Virus record (IMG/VR): IMGVR_UViG_3300009503_000020
Location: 56,718 to 120,717 of that record
From: a virus
DNA: 64,000 nt
Reading direction: 5' to 3' (one strand)
Made by a program: the position numbers and the translations under genes. The notes beneath the pieces were generated by a model, which saw only the letters and a list, made by a program, of their open reading frames with translations, was not told where the DNA came from and ran no database searches. Below are positions 5,669 through 57,321 of the stretch, piece by piece. Positions within the stretch are counted from its first letter, which is position 1. Each line of letters opens with the position of its first letter.

Positions 5669-5825
5669 GTGCTTTGGAGAATATGGTACTAGATTAGATT
5701 GCAAAGAATGTCCTCAGAGCCTAGCATGCAGAAACTTTTCTCACAGTTTACAAGAAGGCTTATATCTCCGAAACAAGACCAAATACAAAGGAAGAGGGAA
5801 GACTAGAAGAAAAGATAAGTATTAG
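5610..5825 (+). CDS. Small Cys-rich protein
   Basis: CFGEY...CKECPQSLAC pattern and a basic tail. Confidence 0.5.
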   Translation: MESEDTLSEKEKKLCKNNFECFGEYGTRLDCKECPQSLACRNFSHSLQEGLYLRNKTKYKGRGKTRRKDKY

Positions 5826-5828
5826 AGG

Positions 5829-7802
5829 ATGGAAGCTTTGCAGGTATTAAGCAAGAAAGAGATTATGGAATTAAAGAAGAAAATAGAACCTATAAAGAAA
5901 CTAGCTCTGCATGACGATGCAGATGGTGTAACTTCTGCAGTACTTATGTCTTATGTGTTTAAGATAAACAAAGTATGGGCTCCAGATGACTTTGGAGAGT
6001 GGCCTGTTGCTCCTTATAAAGTTCAAGGGCAAGAACAACTAGAGCTTCCACCAGATGTTTGTGTGGATATGGTACCAGCTAATCCTGAATGGGTTGGTTT
6101 AGCAATAGACCACCATCCAAATCACCCTCCTGAAGGAAAGAGAAGTTACCAGCTTATCTATGGAGAAGCACCTGCTTCTGTTATTGTCTATACTCTCTTT
6201 AAAGAATTAATTCCACAAGAACATAGATGGAAAGTAGTAGTTGGCTGCCTGTCCAAGGACACGGAAATACTTACTCCAAGTGGGCAAATTGAAATCAAAG
6301 ATCTTAATACTTTGGATTCTGGAATAGGTCTAGATGAACATGGAAAGCTTTGTAAAAATTTACTGTTTACAATACCTAAAGGACGGAAAGAACTGCTGCG
6401 AATCACTACCAGAAAGAGAGAGATATTAGTAACTCCTGAGCATAGGCTGTTTACACAAAGAGGTCTTGTTGAAGCAAAGGACTTAAATATTGGAGACTAC
6501 TTGGTGGTATACTTGAGGAGTTTAGATGACTTCTCAAAGAAAGTTAGAAGCAAACAGGAAGAATTTAGAGAAAGCACGCCAAGTCTTAAAACTATTAAGC
6601 GGAAATCCCAGCTGGAAGAGCTGGTGGCTTGGGAGAGTGAAAGCATCAATTACAGAAGAGAAAAGACAGAAGCTCAGAGAAGCAGCTATGAAGAATGGAA
6701 CAAGAGAACGAATTCTTCTTCACAATCTCAGTCATCGAGAGACGAGAATGTGCCCAATATGTGGGAAAGAGTTTACGGTAAAGAAATCTTCAAGAAAGAA
6801 ATATTGCTCAATGAGATGCTCAGGCAAAGCAAACTTGAAGAACCTTGGCAAATATACAGGTTCACACAGTGGGCGAGAAAACCCAAATTGGAAAGGTGGA
6901 ACTTCAGCCAAGCCATATCATTGGGAAATGAAGAAAAAAGAATGGAGAAACCTTTTGTATCAGAAGGTCGGGTACAAATGTCAACTTTGTGGCAACAAAG
7001 GCAAACTCAACATTCATCACATAAACAGAGACAAGATGGATGGAAGGCCAGAGAATTTGCTTATACTCTGCCCAAGTTGTCATTTAAAAGTTCACAAATT
7101 GGTTTGGAAAGGATTGAAAGCATAGACTATGAGGGCAGAGAAGAAGTATTTGACATACACTGGGCCTCTACCAACAATTTCTTCTTAGCTAATGGAATTC
7201 TTTCCCACAATTGCGTTGGAGACGGACAACCAGAACTTATACCTCCAGAGATATGGAGAGAATTTCCTATCTTACTGGAAGAGTCTGTTACTCCAAGAGA
7301 GAGATATGGAAAGCTAGAGACTTCTAATTATCCTCTGTATTTAAGATTAAGTTCAGGCATCAATGCAGTATGTAAGATACCTGAGAAATGGTACGTAGGA
7401 TATGCTATATTACGCAATGCAAAGTCACCTTGGGATCTAATCAATGATTCCTCTCTTAAGTCTGCTAAAGAACTTGTTGAGAGTGAAAGAGAAAGGATCT
7501 ACAGGGAGACAAGTCCCATACAACTCAGAAATGGAATAAGAGTCTGGGCGTTCCAGTCTGAGACCAAGATAGAGAGAACTCTAGCTTGGGAAATGTGGGA
7601 TACTGACAAACGCACTATTGTAGCTATAAACTCTGCTACTGGAAGAGGTAGCATAAGAGGTACATTAGCTACTTTAGTGTATGAGCATTTGACTGCTCAT
7701 GGTTTCAAGGCAAGTGGACATCCAGGGTTTGGAGGTTTAAAACTTAAACCTGACCAGACTTGGGAGGATGTGTACCACTGTCTTGCAAATCTAAAGATTT
7801 AA
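5829..7802 (+). CDS. DHH/DHHA1 phosphoesterase (RecJ/GAN-like), intein-containing
   Basis: HDDADG and IDHH motifs. The spliced junction VVVG|CVGDG matches the RecJ GTxAD motif. C-terminal GRGSIRG and SGHPGFGG are DHHA1-like. Confidence 0.8.
   Translation: MEALQVLSKKEIMELKKKIEPIKKLALHDDADGVTSAVLMSYVFKINKVWAPDDFGEWPVAPYKVQGQEQLELPPDVCVDMVPANPEWVGLAIDHHPNHPPEGKRSYQLIYGEAPASVIVYTLFKELIPQEHRWKVVVGCLSKDTEILTPSGQIEIKDLNTLDSGIGLDEHGKLCKNLLFTIPKGRKELLRITTRKREILVTPEHRLFTQRGLVEAKDLNIGDYLVVYLRSLDDFSKKVRSKQEEFRESTPSLKTIKRKSQLEELVAWESESINYRREKTEAQRSSYEEWNKRTNSSSQSQSSRDENVPNMWERVYGKEIFKKEILLNEMLRQSKLEEPWQIYRFTQWARKPKLERWNFSQAISLGNEEKRMEKPFVSEGRVQMSTLWQQRQTQHSSHKQRQDGWKAREFAYTLPKLSFKSSQIGLERIESIDYEGREEVFDIHWASTNNFFLANGILSHNCVGDGQPELIPPEIWREFPILLEESVTPRERYGKLETSNYPLYLRLSSGINAVCKIPEKWYVGYAILRNAKSPWDLINDSSLKSAKELVESERERIYRETSPIQLRNGIRVWAFQSETKIERTLAWEMWDTDKRTIVAINSATGRGSIRGTLATLVYEHLTAHGFKASGHPGFGGLKLKPDQTWEDVYHCLANLKI
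6246..7211 (+). mobile_element. Intein (322 aa)
   Basis: Starts CLSKDTEIL (block A); VTPEHRLFT (block B); ends VFDI...NNFFLANGILSHN, followed by +1 Cys at 7212. Confidence 0.93.
6526..7125 (+). CDS. HNH homing endonuclease nested in the +1 frame inside the intein
   Basis: NUMOD3-like TEEKRQKLREA, CPICG...YCSMRC, GRENPNWKGG, CQLCG...IHHINRDKMDGRPENLLILCPSCHLKVH. Own GAGGAG RBS at 6515-6520. Confidence 0.88.
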   Translation: MTSQRKLEANRKNLEKARQVLKLLSGNPSWKSWWLGRVKASITEEKRQKLREAAMKNGTRERILLHNLSHRETRMCPICGKEFTVKKSSRKKYCSMRCSGKANLKNLGKYTGSHSGRENPNWKGGTSAKPYHWEMKKKEWRNLLYQKVGYKCQLCGNKGKLNIHHINRDKMDGRPENLLILCPSCHLKVHKLVWKGLKA

Positions 7803-7846
7803 ATAGCCCAGACAAAGAAATAAAATAAAATGGAGGAATAGGAAAG

Positions 7847-8956
7847 ATGGACAAGAAAGAGGAAGAAGCTCTGTTAAAGGCTTTTTCTAAGTCTACTGGT
7901 AAAACAGTTGCTCAGTTGAGACCACTGCTTGAGAAAGCTAAACAAGAAGCAAAAGAACTAGGCTCTGCAGACAATGACAATATAATCAAAGGTAGATTCA
8001 GAAGGAAAGTAAGTGCTCTACTTTTTGCAGAGAGAACAGGGAAGCCAGTAGCAAGAAAAGAACCTGTAGTTTTCAGAGGATTCCTGTTAGGTGCAGATGC
8101 AATTAGAGACATCAAAGAACAGATGAGAAGGAAAGCACTGAGATACTTTGATGAAGAAGGAGAGAATGCAAGGATAGAAGGTTATGTGGATGAAAATGGA
8201 ACTCCGCTTGACTGGAGACCTACAATTAGAAACAGACGGGGAGAAGAAGTAGAGAACCCTGATTTCCATAAGCCAATTATAGGACATAGATATGTCAGAG
8301 ATATCTTTGGTATAGTTAAGAAGGAAGGAGATGAGAAAGCAAAGCTGTTCCAAATGACTCTGTGGGGAGGATTTGCTTCTAAGTTCACTTATAGACCTTT
8401 TACTCCAGTAGAGTTCAAAGCTACTATCAAAGCAGAGGGAAGCCACTACATTCTCAACCCACCTAGAGTACAGAAAGGAGAGAAAGGATTCAAGAGTATA
8501 ACTATGGATATAAACTATGAACAGTGGATAAGAGAAGCGTTAGGTTCTAGAGAATACACACTAGATAAACTAGAGAAAGCAGTTGCAGATACTAAGAATG
8601 CTAAAGATCCTTGGATAATGGTCACAGGAATTGTGGACTTCATAGACCCGGAGATTAACCCAAAGACAGGTTCTAGAAATATCACAATAGTAGATGTAGA
8701 CTCAGGAATGACAGACACAGTAAGAGTTTTCATACCTAAAGACTTCCCACTAGCATTCAGAGAATATTCAAAGGTAATTGTCTTTGGTAGACCTAGATCT
8801 TGGAAGAGAGATGACGATACTGAAGAACACTACTCTATCAATGGAATAAGTGTTTATCCAATACCAGGAGAGACAGTAGAAGCACCAGTAGAAGCAAGTA
8901 AACCAGCTAGAGAAACAGAAACTAGTGAAGAGGAAGGATGGGATCTCTGGGAGTAA
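7847..8956 (+). CDS. Probable OB-fold single-stranded DNA-binding protein
   Basis: OB-like beta pattern (IMVTGIV...ITIVD...VRVF...KVIVFG), acidic aromatic C-tail (EEEGWDLWE), adjacent to the recombinase; TATA box at about 7798. Confidence 0.55.
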   Translation: MDKKEEEALLKAFSKSTGKTVAQLRPLLEKAKQEAKELGSADNDNIIKGRFRRKVSALLFAERTGKPVARKEPVVFRGFLLGADAIRDIKEQMRRKALRYFDEEGENARIEGYVDENGTPLDWRPTIRNRRGEEVENPDFHKPIIGHRYVRDIFGIVKKEGDEKAKLFQMTLWGGFASKFTYRPFTPVEFKATIKAEGSHYILNPPRVQKGEKGFKSITMDINYEQWIREALGSREYTLDKLEKAVADTKNAKDPWIMVTGIVDFIDPEINPKTGSRNITIVDVDSGMTDTVRVFIPKDFPLAFREYSKVIVFGRPRSWKRDDDTEEHYSINGISVYPIPGETVEAPVEASKPARETETSEEEGWDLWE

Positions 8957-8965
8957 TCCCATCCT
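8935..8965 (+). repeat. 10-bp stem hairpin over the SSB stop, just before the recombinase RBS
   Basis: AGGATGGGAT (8935-8944) / ATCCCATCCT (8956-8965). Confidence 0.6.
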
Positions 8966-8984
8966 CACTAAGGAGGTTTAAAAG

Positions 8985-9944
8985 ATGGCAGTAATTTCTT
9001 CAGGATGCAAAGCATTGGATGAAGTTCTAGTAGGTGGCTTAAAGACTTCAGTTACTACTCTAGTCTTTGGAATACCAAACTTAGGTAAGACTTGGTTATG
9101 CTACCAACTTGCATGCATGTGCACTAGACCAGTTAAATCAGGAGGACTAGGGAAGAAAGCTCTCTACTTAGATACAGAAGGATTCTTCTTTACTGAAGAC
9201 ACTGTTGACAGGTTTGCAGGATATTTCAAGAAGAGATGGCCTGACTGTGATCCGAAGAAGATAGAGATAATACATGTACCTAGTATCTTTGACCTTGGAG
9301 AACTCTTTGGTATGCAATTGGATATACATATAGAAGAGTCTAGAGTCTCAGTGATAACTAAGTATCCTACAGAAGCACAAAAGAAGATAGCACAAGGAAA
9401 AGGAAAAAGTAAAGTAGACACAACAACAAGCAAAGACAAAGATTGGTTGGAGAAGGCTCCTATTTACCAGAAAGTGAAGACAGGAGAATTTGGTTTACTA
9501 ATAATAGACTCTATAACTATACCAATCAAGAGTGAGATAGCTGCAGCAACCCAGAACTTTCCTGCAAGGACAAGCATAGTATCTGCAATACTAGGTGCTT
9601 GTTATCCAATTGCAAGGAGAGCAGACATAGCTATTCTAATAACAGACCACATCACTAGCAACCCTATGTCTCCTACATATCAGTTTGGAACAGGAGATCC
9701 TTGGGGAGGAAGGAATATCCTCTACTATATTAAACACATCTTTGGATTGTACAAGCCACTAGCAGATCAAGTGAAAGCATATGCACCAGATGGACAGAGA
9801 GTTAGGAGATTCTCTAGGTATAGATATCCTGGATTAGATGCAGCTATGGCTGTAGTAAAACTAGAGAAAGACAAAGGCTATGTAGACTTACCACCAAAAG
9901 GACCTAAGCCAGCCACTGAAGAAGGTGGAGAGGAGGCTGCATAG
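8985..9944 (+). CDS. radB: RadA/RadB-family recombinase (no N-terminal HhH; RadB-like)
   Basis: SSGCKALDEVLVGG, Walker A GIPNLGKT, YLDTEG, Walker B LLIIDSI. Confidence 0.85.
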   Translation: MAVISSGCKALDEVLVGGLKTSVTTLVFGIPNLGKTWLCYQLACMCTRPVKSGGLGKKALYLDTEGFFFTEDTVDRFAGYFKKRWPDCDPKKIEIIHVPSIFDLGELFGMQLDIHIEESRVSVITKYPTEAQKKIAQGKGKSKVDTTTSKDKDWLEKAPIYQKVKTGEFGLLIIDSITIPIKSEIAAATQNFPARTSIVSAILGACYPIARRADIAILITDHITSNPMSPTYQFGTGDPWGGRNILYYIKHIFGLYKPLADQVKAYAPDGQRVRRFSRYRYPGLDAAMAVVKLEKDKGYVDLPPKGPKPATEEGGEEAA

Positions 9945-45196: not shown

Positions 45197-47280
45197 TTCT
45201 CTATGAGTTCTAGCTTCTTCTTTTTCAACTCTAGTTCAATCTTTCTCTCTTCAGGAGTCTTACTTCTCTTCTTAAGCTCATCATCTATTATCTTTGCTAG
45301 AGCTTCATCCTCCATGCTTAGGTGTTTCTTTCTGATAAGTTCACCTTCCCACTTGTGTAGCCCTTGTTTCTTTATCCACTGTGTTGCTTGTTCAACTGTC
45401 CATTCATCTGAGAACCTTACTCTAGATACTCTAGCTCCATGAATTGTCCCTGGTCTAGGATACAAACATACTAGTACTTCTAGAACTTGCTTGGGTGCAT
45501 CCTTCAATTCTGGAATGTAGTCTTCAGGATTGTCTACACATCTGGAGAATGCCTTCTGGTCATATATCTCTAACCAGAAGTAGTTCCAACCCTCTTTCTT
45601 TTCAACTTTGAATGGTATGTAGTAGTCACCTTTAGTAGGATCTCCACTCCTAGCTAATGCGTGAGGAAGCTTAGCTCTCTCAAGTACTCCTCCTCTTCCT
45701 TCTTTATTGATATAAACATAGTATCCTTTCAACTTATTGCCATGAAATATCATTGAGATGAAGTTAGGAGGAGACATATCTATCAAGTTAACTGTACCTT
45801 CATCCACTGGAGTAACATAAGTAACTAGATCTCCTACCATCATCTTAGTCTTAGGCTTATCTATAGCCATCCACTTCTGTATATCTCTGCATATCTTCCA
45901 GACTGCCTTAGCTGATTCTCCTTCTTGAGTCATTTCAGAAGGATCAGCATAGACATTGAATTCAAAACCTTCAGAGATACGGATATCCCAGTGTTTTTTC
46001 AAACCTTCAGGAGTTTCTATCTCATGAATCTGCAAGACAAACTTAGCTTCTTTTAACTCCTCTGCACTTAGTTTCTCTATTGTATAAATAGATGACCCTT
46101 CCTCTTCCTGGGTAATAGTGAACTCTCCTTTCATTTCCTTACCTTTGAAATCTGCTCTTATCAGCTCAGCTCCTTCTTCAGTCTCTCTTTTGAGAGTGAC
46201 TGTTCCTTGATCAACTATTTGCATCTTAGCTGTAAGAGTCTTAGAGGGATTGTACTTAGTGAGGGGAGGAATATCACCTTCATAGTCAAACCACTTCTTA
46301 TCAACAGTCCCTTCATATTCAAGAGGAACAGGAGAGAATCTAGTGAAATCTAAATCAGAAGACCAAGAGTATACCTTGTCTCCTTCTTTAATTCTTAGGA
46401 ACCACTTCTGATGAGGGATTCCTCTAACTACTATTTGTCCCATATAAGAGAGATACTGAACAGTAAACCTAGTTGCTGCTTCTTCTTCCTTAGACTTAAT
46501 ACCTTTCTCCCATGCCTCTTTAACCCATTTCTCCCACTCTTTGTATAGCTCACCTGTTCTCCAATCAGGAGGAACTGGAATGTAACCTTTAGGAGGAACC
46601 CACTTCTTCTTGAAACCTCTAGCTAGACAGTAAGGAGTTTGATCTCCAGGAACTAAGACTCTCCACATTAGTTCAGTTCCTGGTCTTGGTTTTTTCGTTT
46701 CAGGATCAATAACTTGTACATTAACTGCTCTCACAACTACTCTTGTCCAGTCACCACCAAAAGGACCCTCATTGTTGTCACTCTTCAAGAAATATTCATG
46801 GAAGTAAGGTTTTTGAACACCAAAGTGTACCCTTCCTTTATCTACTATAACAAATACTCCAGGATATTCTTTAGTTGAGCCTACTTGTCCTGGCTTAACT
46901 ACACCTTCCACTGTTAACCATACTTTAGGTTGCCTCGCCTTTGTCTCTGCTCTGAAACCCTTGTTCTTGTTGTTCTTAGTAAATTCTATTTTTACTTTCT
47001 TAACCATCTCTCTTCCATCTTCAATAGTGTAGCATGTCTTTGGAACTCCTCCTGGAGTTAATACTGTCCAACCTACTAGATGGTCATCAACTTCCATTCT
47101 CCAGTCAGTATGCACAGAGCGCCCTCTGATGTGCCATTGCATAACATATCTCATTTCTTTCTTAGGTGGAGGATATTCCATGTAAGGTGCTAGAAGAGCA
47201 CCTCCTTGCCCTCCCTCTCCTTCTTTTGGAATAGCTTTCATTACTTCTAACCAGTTAATCATGCTACTCTTGATTTTCAT
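45172..47280 (-). CDS. Protein with three LigD 3'-phosphoesterase-like domains
   Basis: YVMQWHIRGRSVHTDWRME and FVLQIH...KHWDIRI match the PE motif Q-x-H...H-x-D-x-R; the middle copy is degenerate; D.G.V...F.G.KLKG C-terminal elements. Confidence 0.7.
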   Translation of the reverse strand: MKIKSSMINWLEVMKAIPKEGEGGQGGALLAPYMEYPPPKKEMRYVMQWHIRGRSVHTDWRMEVDDHLVGWTVLTPGGVPKTCYTIEDGREMVKKVKIEFTKNNKNKGFRAETKARQPKVWLTVEGVVKPGQVGSTKEYPGVFVIVDKGRVHFGVQKPYFHEYFLKSDNNEGPFGGDWTRVVVRAVNVQVIDPETKKPRPGTELMWRVLVPGDQTPYCLARGFKKKWVPPKGYIPVPPDWRTGELYKEWEKWVKEAWEKGIKSKEEEAATRFTVQYLSYMGQIVVRGIPHQKWFLRIKEGDKVYSWSSDLDFTRFSPVPLEYEGTVDKKWFDYEGDIPPLTKYNPSKTLTAKMQIVDQGTVTLKRETEEGAELIRADFKGKEMKGEFTITQEEEGSSIYTIEKLSAEELKEAKFVLQIHEIETPEGLKKHWDIRISEGFEFNVYADPSEMTQEGESAKAVWKICRDIQKWMAIDKPKTKMMVGDLVTYVTPVDEGTVNLIDMSPPNFISMIFHGNKLKGYYVYINKEGRGGVLERAKLPHALARSGDPTKGDYYIPFKVEKKEGWNYFWLEIYDQKAFSRCVDNPEDYIPELKDAPKQVLEVLVCLYPRPGTIHGARVSRVRFSDEWTVEQATQWIKKQGLHKWEGELIRKKHLSMEDEALAKIIDDELKKRSKTPEERKIELELKKKKLELIEKWLKAQES

Positions 47281-56151: not shown

Positions 56152-57321
56152 CTAAGCTATCTTATTTAAGCCTTTATTGGTCAAATCTTTGAGGAGAGGA
56201 AGCCATTTTGAAGTAACTATTTTATTCCAATCAAAAGACTGAGCAAACTGTATAGAAGCTTGTGAATAAGTCTCTCTTAATTCTTTATTAAAGTAAGCTT
56301 CTTCTATCTTCTTAGTTAGATCTTCTCTGTCAACTCGTTGGCATTTCCAACCTCTAGGAGTAAAAACAGTTTCACCCATCTTGACTAACCAACCATGTCC
56401 TTTTACAATCTCTGGTAATGCTGAAGAGTCCGAAGCTATAACAGGAACACCACAAGCTTGAGCTTCAAGAACTGGTAGACAGAAACCTTCACGTCTTGAA
56501 GCATTGACTAAGACATCAAAACAAGAGTACAACTTTGCCATTTCAAGATCAGGAAGACCAACCATCTGAGGAAGGTGCTCAGGAAATATCACATGCTTTT
56601 CAAGATTAAGCTTCTTGGCTACTTCAACTAAGTTATATCCTCTAGAATCAGAAGGTTTAGTGTAAGCAAATATCATCCATTTCTTAGATTCACTAGGAAA
56701 CTCTTCTTTAAACTTAGAGAATGCAAGGAACATGTCATCCCATCCTTTCCTCGGTTCAGGATCACTATTAGCAGCCACTATGCCAAAGAAGAATTTATCT
56801 TGCTTGAGGTTGAAGAGTTTCCTACTTTCCTCTTTCGGATATGGTTTAAAGGCTTGCAAGTCTACTCCATGTGGTATTACTGCAGTAGGTTCTCTCTTTG
56901 CTAATTTTCGGTAGACTCTAGCTCCAAACTCAGAGCAAGGTACAAAGTAAGAAAAGGATTTCATAGTAGTAATGTCTTCAGGAGAATAGTCAAAAGAATC
57001 TACAGGACCATAAAACATTGAGTGTGGAAGAAGAGAGAACCAACGAAATGGCCAGAAGTCTGAGGCTAGAATAGGTAGATCAATATTGAACTTCTTAATA
57101 TAGTGTTCAACAGAGTATCTTCCCCACTCTTCCTCAGCTGTAGGAATCACTCTTACTCCAGAAATTCTAAGAGAAGCTCCTGGATGCAAACCATAGTATG
57201 TTGAAATGACTAGAGGAAACTGCTGGGCTAACCTGAGGGCAATATTTTTGGTTACAACCCCATATCCAGAAGCAACAAAAGGAGCAACTGAATGCCAAAG
57301 AATTCTAAGTTCCTTTACCAT
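56152..57321 (-). CDS. Glycosyltransferase family 4, paralog of 15820..17106
   Basis: RILWHSVAP, SGYG, IPHGVD, RKG, EGFCLPVLEAQACG. Confidence 0.92.
   Translation of the reverse strand: MVKELRILWHSVAPFVASGYGVVTKNIALRLAQQFPLVISTYYGLHPGASLRISGVRVIPTAEEEWGRYSVEHYIKKFNIDLPILASDFWPFRWFSLLPHSMFYGPVDSFDYSPEDITTMKSFSYFVPCSEFGARVYRKLAKREPTAVIPHGVDLQAFKPYPKEESRKLFNLKQDKFFFGIVAANSDPEPRKGWDDMFLAFSKFKEEFPSESKKWMIFAYTKPSDSRGYNLVEVAKKLNLEKHVIFPEHLPQMVGLPDLEMAKLYSCFDVLVNASRREGFCLPVLEAQACGVPVIASDSSALPEIVKGHGWLVKMGETVFTPRGWKCQRVDREDLTKKIEEAYFNKELRETYSQASIQFAQSFDWNKIVTSKWLPLLKDLTNKGLNKIA

Follow-up and report, generated by a model that had tools for sequence, protein, structure and literature searches.

Inteins whose homing endonuclease is read from a different frame than the intein itself are already known, from a case in Brucella phages published in 2015 and from preprints of 2025 and 2026. 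Here we describe a further example, a class 1 intein in a viral gene for a DHH-superfamily phosphoesterase, in which a complete open reading frame (ORF) for an HNH endonuclease overlaps the central part of the intein in the +1 frame. The stretch of DNA that was analysed (64,000 nucleotides, "the window" in the following) comes from the IMG/VR virus record IMGVR_UViG_3300009503_000020, where it spans positions 56,718 to 120,717, that is, the last 64 kb of a record of 120,717 bp with direct terminal repeats. The genome has a GC content of 38%, and DNA of the window is contained in hot-spring metagenome runs.

In the Brucella phages (Tb, Pr and others), an intein with an out-of-frame HNH ORF interrupts the gene for TerL (GenBank KC556897, Tb_07/Tb_08; Virol J 2015, PMC4422536). 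Tb_08 is annotated as 'intein-encoded' in GenBank, and we checked that it lies in the +1 frame. The architecture is that of our locus: the intein belongs to class 1, its frame stays open through the middle, and a zinc-ribbon/HNH ORF is found in the +1 frame between Hint lobes that are homologous to those described below. The product of Tb_08 and the HNH protein of the window share 29% identity (BLASTP, 5e-17). On the other hand, the host protein is TerL in the Brucella phages and a DHH phosphoesterase here, and the genome there is of high GC, so that open off-frames are far less surprising. Furthermore, Tb_08 starts with GTG, covers blocks F and G and ends only shortly before the intein does, whereas the ORF in the window ends approximately where block F begins. 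The authors of the 2015 study considered a role linked to the terminase, which is inapplicable here; we rejected a terminase-associated role of the HNH protein for the present locus, as the host gene is not a terminase.

Gosselin, Arsenault and Gogarten (bioRxiv 10.1101/2025.01.02.630785) described actinobacteriophage inteins whose endonuclease is encoded in another frame or antisense to the intein, and proposed an invasion by free-standing endonucleases. In these inteins, as in ours, no structure can be recognised in the in-frame middle. The same-strand example of that study has an endonuclease VII-like gene, in 'frame 3', and others are antisense and LAGLIDADG or VSR-like, in contrast to the +1 zinc-ribbon HNH, the low-GC hot-spring virus and the new host protein of the present case. 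Gordonia phage Clown (NC_055867), which belongs to the same data set, has a +1 open stretch of 380 codons in its TerL intein (L003:1365-2504) that contains several zinc ribbons and an HNH motif. The stretch lies within terminase gene 5 (L003:797-3556), where no separate coding sequence is annotated, and its reading as a +1-frame HNH is our own.

For a cyanobacterial dnaX intein with an out-of-frame LAGLIDADG ORF, Phillips, DeSimone and Gogarten showed purifying selection that is specific to the frame (bioRxiv 10.64898/2026.09.14.751524); as cited in that preprint, the case was first noted by Gorbalenya in 1998. The dnaX intein has in common with ours an overlapping homing-endonuclease ORF and the coexistence of intein-free and intein-bearing alleles, and a secondary invasion of a mini-intein was proposed for it. 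It differs in that its LAGLIDADG nuclease is encoded in a '+2' ORF and its host is cellular. Arsenault et al. (Genes 2025, PMC11855218) described another hidden out-of-frame HNH, in the ShiLan insertion of phage DNA methylases. There, too, the insertion in the host gene is in frame and free of stops, and an HNH gene is overprinted on it, but ShiLan has neither a splicing domain nor a detectable ribosome-binding site, whereas the locus in the window has a complete Hint domain and a strong Shine-Dalgarno (SD) sequence. In the so-called fractured genes (Dassa et al. 2009, PMC2677866), a free-standing endonuclease gene lies between the halves of a split intein. An endonuclease gene of the free-standing type thus occupies the position of the intein nuclease domain, as it does here; in the fractured genes, however, the intein is broken in two and splices in trans, whereas the intein frame in the window is continuous.

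Finally, the canonical arrangement can be represented by a protein, P0002, that carries two inteins with in-frame zinc-ribbon/HNH nucleases. Both inteins consist of the same three modules as ours, in the same order, and each module is detectably similar. The difference is that the nuclease of P0002 is a part of the intein polypeptide, while that of the window has an ORF to itself, one base out of register and with a start and a stop of its own. A first-pass annotation of the window, made before this analysis, had pointed out that the out-of-frame architecture might have precedents in phages, and the Brucella TerL HNH and the two preprints cited above bear this out.

The features of the locus are the following (positions are those of the window).
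5829 to 7802, plus strand: precursor gene, a DHH-superfamily phosphoesterase split by the intein, 657 amino acids (aa), from the ORF list and the comparison with intein-less homologues.
5829 to 6245, plus strand: N-extein, 139 aa, ending in ...RWKVVVG, from the alignment with intein-less homologues.
6246 to 7211, plus strand: intein of class 1 (Cys1 ... His-Asn, Cys+1), 966 nucleotides (nt) or 322 aa, from Pfam Intein_splicing and its exact absence in relatives.
6246 to 6524, plus strand: N-terminal Hint lobe with block A (Cys1) and block B (TPEH, residues 63-66), from the sequence.
6515 to 6520, plus strand: SD-like GAGGAG, 5 nt ahead of the ATG of the HNH ORF, from the sequence.
6525 to 7124, plus strand: middle of the intein in the intein frame, 200 codons, hydrophilic and without a recognisable domain (nothing found with Pfam or PHROG); interpreted as a loop or linker.
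6526 to 7125, plus strand: HNH endonuclease ORF in the +1 frame, 199 aa plus stop, from the ORF list, Pfam HNH and PHROG.
6751 to 6819, plus strand: zinc-ribbon module of the HNH protein (C76, C79, C94, C98), from near-invariant cysteines in an alignment of 60 sequences, with a predicted local distance difference test score (pLDDT) of about 96.
6979 to 7095, plus strand: HNH catalytic core (C152, C155, H164, H165, N177, C182, C185, H186, H190), from conserved columns, with a pLDDT of 90-97.
7113 to 7211, plus strand: C-terminal Hint lobe with blocks F and G (...EEVFDIHW...FLANGILSHN), from the sequence.
7212 to 7802, plus strand: C-extein, 196 aa plus stop, starting with CVGDGQPE, from the alignment with intein-less homologues.

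The best explanation that we can offer for this arrangement is a class 1 intein in a viral DHH-phosphoesterase gene, mobile or recently so, whose nuclease is overprinted in the +1 frame and would be made as a separate protein. We assign this explanation a probability of roughly 0.82.

The intein itself had been located at 6246-7211 by the first-pass annotation, which had also stated that its frame stays open for 322 aa and that its centre contains no recognisable endonuclease motifs; both statements hold. The N-terminus reads CLSKDTEIL, with the nucleophile Cys1 encoded at 6246-6248 and with T63-P-E-H66 in block B, and the C-terminus ...ILSHN is followed by Cys+1 at 7212-7214. The Pfam family Intein_splicing (PF14890) matches with 60.4 bits (cutoff 35.8), in the N-terminal and the C-terminal part, and leaves the middle unmatched. 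Similarity of the N-terminal Hint lobe was found to the TerL intein of Brucella phage Tb, to P0002 and to a second intein of the same genome, and similarity of the C-terminal lobe to the Tb and P0002 inteins. The frame-0 middle between them gave no match in Pfam or PHROG, its best E-value against P0002 was 0.37, and 70% of its residues are polar, charged or small. Judging by this composition, it may well be a disordered loop.

The +1 frame gives a very different picture. The first-pass annotation had described a complete ORF of 199 aa at 6526-7125 with a zinc ribbon and an HNH motif, 600 dual-coding nt, and a GAGGAG 5 nt upstream of the ATG, and all of these elements were confirmed. The ORF is matched by Pfam HNH (PF01844) with 25.7 bits against a cutoff of 21.4 and by phrog_1271 (HNH endonuclease) with an E-value of 5e-23, and an exhaustive search returned 14,274 representative homologues at E<=1e-3. 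In the alignment of 60 sequences, the four zinc-ribbon cysteines, an NPNWKGG motif and the core residues C152, C155, H164, H165, N177, C182 and C185 stand in invariant or near-invariant columns; H186 and H190 were read from the sequence. An AlphaFold2 model of the HNH protein that was calculated with this alignment has a mean pLDDT of 78, with values of 90-97 in the zinc ribbon and the core. Its best Foldseek matches are the HNH nucleases Cap5, IscB, Cas5-HNH, McrA, GVE2 HNH and Gme HNH, with a probability of 0.96-1.0 for domain-sized alignments and lower for the long IscB alignments. The E-values of these matches (0.01-0.2) are modest because the HNH domain is small. A sequence search against the PDB returned weak matches only, with E-values of 0.28 and above (the HNH domain of IscB, DotN).

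The ORF also has signals of its own for translation. A TAG at 6523-6525 shuts the +1 frame immediately upstream of the ATG. In this genome, GGAG or GAGG is most frequent 11-12 nt upstream of the starts, and the SD of the HNH ORF fits this peak; a 6-mer SD precedes 13% of the gene starts, compared with 2.1% of all ATGs. One detail of the first-pass annotation did not stand, namely a NUMOD3 motif in the HNH ORF: Pfam shows no NUMOD3 (PF07460) there at E<=1. P0100, a homologue with a NUMOD3 motif, can be aligned with residues 18-60, and a degenerate copy in the N-terminal part of the protein is possible. Taken by its intact zinc ligands and H/N/H residues, its confident model and an SD at the preferred distance, the HNH protein looks functional.

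The double open frame is not a matter of chance; selection keeps both frames open. To estimate the number of stop codons that would be expected, the HNH protein was held fixed and its synonymous codons were redrawn 20,000 times from the codon usage of the genome. The intein frame then contained 16.9 stops on average; the observed number is 0, and not one of the 20,000 draws was free of stops. For an unselected off-frame of 199 codons in this genome, about 19 stops are expected (0.094 per codon), again against an observed 0. A stop in the intein frame requires that an HNH codon ending in T is followed by a codon that starts with AA, AG or GA. Among the 77 HNH codons that are at risk in this sense, none ends in T, compared with 42 of the other 121 (35%) and with 30.5% of the at-risk sites in the other genes of the genome. 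At the +1 offset, a potential stop in the intein frame is always split as T|AA, T|AG or T|GA, and a synonymous change of the third base in the nuclease codon suffices to remove it.

The same can be seen on the level of the genome. In its 64 ORFs of at least 150 aa, the longest open runs in an off-frame have 221 and 199 codons. These are the runs of the two intein genes, the longer one belonging to the second intein of this genome, and the run that comes after them in length has 103. The log-likelihood per codon is about 0 to 0.1 in both of the overlapping frames, whereas ordinary off-frames have -1.07 (standard deviation 0.28) and the third frame at this locus -0.66. We also fetched 49 related HNH loci, which served as a control only (viral and metagenome contigs from IMG/VR and metagenomes, the best with 44% identity). 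All 49 are free-standing, and in none of them does another sense frame stay open over the length of the gene. At such a low GC content, a double open frame of 200 codons cannot have come about by chance, and the selection is for this reason unusually plain.

An assembly indel that would put the HNH in frame had been named in the first-pass annotation as one of the things that would overturn its reading. Contigs of a second hot-spring run from another study (X2) are identical to the window and free of gaps over 5700-6264, 6270-6727, 6973-7376 and 7516-7831; these covered parts show no indel and include both ends of the HNH ORF.

With respect to the host protein, a search with the C-extein yielded 32 full-length homologues of about 330 aa each. 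Invariant in all 32 are H25, D27, D29, D77, D91-H92-H93, G139-D140 and G305-H306...G308, and these residues (HxDxDG, D, DHH, GD and GH.G) correspond to motifs I-IV of the DHH superfamily and to the GGH motif of the DHHA1 type. A profile of the homologues matched the DHH-family PAP phosphatase 8a8k at 1.1e-4 and the archaeal RecJ2 at 0.11. By themselves, the exteins say less: Pfam DHH matches the N-extein weakly (13.9 bits, under the cutoff of 28.1), and the C-extein alone has no Pfam match. The intein is inserted two residues ahead of the invariant Asp of motif IV. A position just before a conserved motif Asp is a typical site for an intein.

None of the 32 homologues contains the intein; they align through the site as ...WKVVVG|AVGDGQPE..., with Ala in the place that Cys+1 takes in the intein-bearing allele. 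The closest of them (P0152, 99% identical in the C-extein) is encoded on a contig, L005, from which precisely the 966 nt of the intein are absent; over about 8 kb, L005 and the window share 97.4-98.3% identity. A contig from a hot-spring run of 2025 (X5) joins position 6232 to 7215 with 16 nt in between, which is a net loss of 966 nt, and reads ...RWKTVLGAVGDG. In a sediment run (X4), a loose end reads VVGAVGD, that is, the junction of an intein-less host gene. Since all homologues and the near-identical relatives are free of the intein, it must have arrived recently. Its codon adaptation is 0.10, compared with 0.30-0.32 for the exteins, and such a poorer codon usage is what one expects for a newcomer. 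The presence/absence polymorphism among near-identical viruses is exact, and the intein is most likely mobile or was so until recently.

Next to the junction itself, the window and L005 differ more than elsewhere: in the flanks (6233-6245 and 7212-7223, compared with L005:4396-4420) 6 of 24 nt are different, as opposed to about 2% in other parts. The differences are GGC/GGA, TGC/GCA, GTT/GTA and GAC/GAT, and the 138 nt that follow on the right show no difference. A co-conversion tract would be one possible reading, protection of the target site another; as some of the junction variants occur also in the empty X5 allele, we draw no conclusion from them.

The mechanism that we propose would work as follows. 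The intein is inserted at the conserved G|A-V-G-D motif of the viral DHH-family phosphoesterase gene. Frame 0 supplies both Hint lobes, joined by a hydrophilic stretch of about 200 residues for which freedom from stops would be the only requirement. Ribosomes that translate the host gene would make the precursor, and splicing would restore the DHH protein. Read one base further on, the same 600 nt encode the complete zinc-ribbon/HNH endonuclease. This protein (23 kDa) would most likely be translated as a product of its own, by ribosomes that initiate internally on the mRNA of the host gene, at the SD and ATG of the HNH ORF. As the likely homing endonuclease, it would nick or cut intein-less alleles near GTAGTTGGA|GCAGTAGGAGA during co-infection, and repair would then copy the intein into the empty allele.

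How such a layout came about is a separate question. The first-pass annotation had suggested that a free-standing HNH gene invaded a mini-intein. We find this origin reasonably probable, and it is made plausible by free-standing HNH homologues of similar length, namely P0100, which aligns over residues 18-197, and the 198-aa gp455 of Serratia phage BF, which sits among tRNA genes; the 49 related loci, too, are without exception free-standing. As a firm statement it goes beyond the evidence, because the intein is also collinear with in-frame inteins.

This collinearity is the basis for a different origin, in which a canonical in-frame HNH intein was changed by small indels on both sides of the nuclease module, so that the nuclease was shifted into another frame and gained a start of its own later. 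The best match of the HNH protein is P0002, with its two canonical inteins, and the order of the parts in comparison with it is Hint-N in frame 0, HNH in +1 and Hint-C in frame 0, with the frame-0 middle unmatched. Frame transitions by indels of 1-2 bp have been discussed by Gosselin et al. (10.1101/2025.01.02.630785), in the opposite direction. On the other hand, nothing is missing from the +1 ORF as a gene: a stop codon immediately precedes its ATG, its SD is strong, and it aligns nearly end to end with P0100 and gp455, which are free-standing and of the same length. Domain by domain, P0002 (79 bits) is no closer than the best free-standing matches (84-92 bits). A change of frame would furthermore need two simultaneous indels and an alternative frame that was already free of stops, which is very unlikely at 38% GC. 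We therefore regard a frame change as a tentative alternative, with some way to go before it could be called probable. The need for a stop-free alternative frame is common to frame change and invasion. Such a frame is far easier to come by in a GC-rich genome, and the layout may, speculatively, have arisen elsewhere in a genome of this kind and have been kept open while the composition drifted.

Several points weigh against the proposed explanation or limit its support, and they have to be set beside the evidence given above. The AlphaFold2 model of the 322-aa intein was calculated from a single sequence; its mean pLDDT is 36 and the Hint lobes are unresolved as well, so it is uninformative about the loop. 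In the HNH protein, K147-V148 (6964-6969), just before the first CxxC of the core, replace an R-D pair that is found in at least 90% of the 60 family members. This pair is conserved but, to our knowledge, not known to be catalytic, and its loss may be a cost of the constraint imposed by the overlap, or an early decay. Within 6633-6935, two contigs of 151 nt from the sediment run X4 align to the HNH region without gaps, at 91% and 96% identity, and a diverged copy of the element thus seems to exist in another habitat. However, this diverged copy provides 13 listed substitutions, and the synonymous changes among them (4 in the HNH frame, 2 in the intein frame) are too few for a decision. The whole 657-aa protein has no close relatives in IMG/VR, and in a set of 5.8 billion proteins only the protein itself was found at lengths of 361-1150 aa. 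No close intein-bearing relatives were found that could serve for a frame-specific comparison of nonsynonymous and synonymous substitution rates (dN/dS). Among the runs listed as containing the stretch there are no RNA runs. The indel check, finally, rests on assembled Logan contigs and not on raw reads, and X2 leaves 6728-6972 uncovered.

Some of these points could be taken to mean that the HNH ORF is a defunct relic, and that the intein persists by splicing alone, as a mini-intein with a long junk loop. K147 and V148, the lack of RNA runs among those listed and the X4 substitutions, with no clear favour for the HNH frame, would all fit such a view, and so would the fact that the intein was found in one viral lineage only. 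It is nevertheless improbable in our opinion. A relic would be an unselected off-frame, with the roughly 19 stops that were expected and not seen; the catalytic and zinc-binding residues are all intact in a fold that is predicted with confidence; and the SD and the ATG have been retained. In addition, with intein-less relatives that are 97-99% identical, the arrival must be recent, which leaves little time for decay and speaks for recent mobility.

If the overprinted nuclease is indeed made, it could in principle be joined to the Hint domain by programmed ribosomal frameshifting from the host frame, instead of being initiated separately. Nothing points to this directly, apart from the +1 offset that both nucleases of this genome share with those of the Brucella and Gordonia phages. 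The TAG just before the ATG closes the +1 frame, so a slip would have to fall inside the ORF, and no slippery heptamer was seen by eye at 6500-6530 or 7100-7130. A strong SD at the right distance offers a simpler route. Frameshifting was rejected on the grounds of the missing slippery site and of the stop directly before the HNH ATG, and we consider it very improbable.

The least credible possibility is an artefact of assembly or sequencing in which the HNH is truly in frame and two compensating indel errors mimic the overlap: the source is a single metagenome assembly, but the independent contigs of the other study's run are identical and without gaps across both ORF boundaries, indel errors cannot bring about the complete lack of T at the 77 at-risk third positions, a stop codon stands directly ahead of the HNH start in its own frame, and the +1 layout recurs in the second intein of this genome, in the Brucella phages (sequenced repeatedly by different groups) and in Gordonia phage Clown.

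The second intein lies outside the window, in another host gene.
Genome positions 46052 to 47017 (L060:1053-2018): intein of 966 nt in a 607-aa ORF.
L060:1306-1956: LAGLIDADG ORF of 216 aa in the +1 frame of this intein (Pfam LAGLIDADG_3, 3.6e-5).
About 16 stops would be expected in the frame of this intein and none is seen. The N-terminal Hint lobe is 31% identical to the one at 6246-6524, and there is no obvious strong SD ahead of the first ATG of the LAGLIDADG ORF. Thus, two unrelated nucleases, HNH and LAGLIDADG, are found in the +1 frame of 966-nt inteins in one genome. That overprinting is the preferred way of carrying an intein nuclease in this virus lineage, and not an accident, is a thought that this coincidence invites, but we hold it to be doubtful.

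As to the surroundings of the DHH gene, the region directly 3' of it (7847-9944) encodes a conserved protein of 369 aa, for which no family match was found, and then a Rad51/RadA-like ATPase of 319 aa (Pfam Rad51, 8e-20). Synteny of the three genes extends to the related contig L005, and as a group they resemble a nuclease/recombinase module of the archaeal type.

The out-of-frame layout as such is not new, and the value of this locus is that of a supporting case and an experimental handle, rather than the discovery of a new phenomenon. What is new is the host gene, for a DHH-family phosphoesterase, as well as the setting in a hot-spring virus with a genome of low GC content and with natural empty alleles. 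The near-identical (97-99%) intein-less viruses give the empty homing site directly. If the doubtful idea were to hold that overprinting is the preferred way in this lineage, then the +1 offset would be the one arrangement that is able to survive even at 38% GC, and the nuclease could be expressed on a schedule and at a level of its own, uncoupled from the host protein. The offset, in combination with the codon rule, would then indicate for any genome the places at which hidden intein nucleases are possible.

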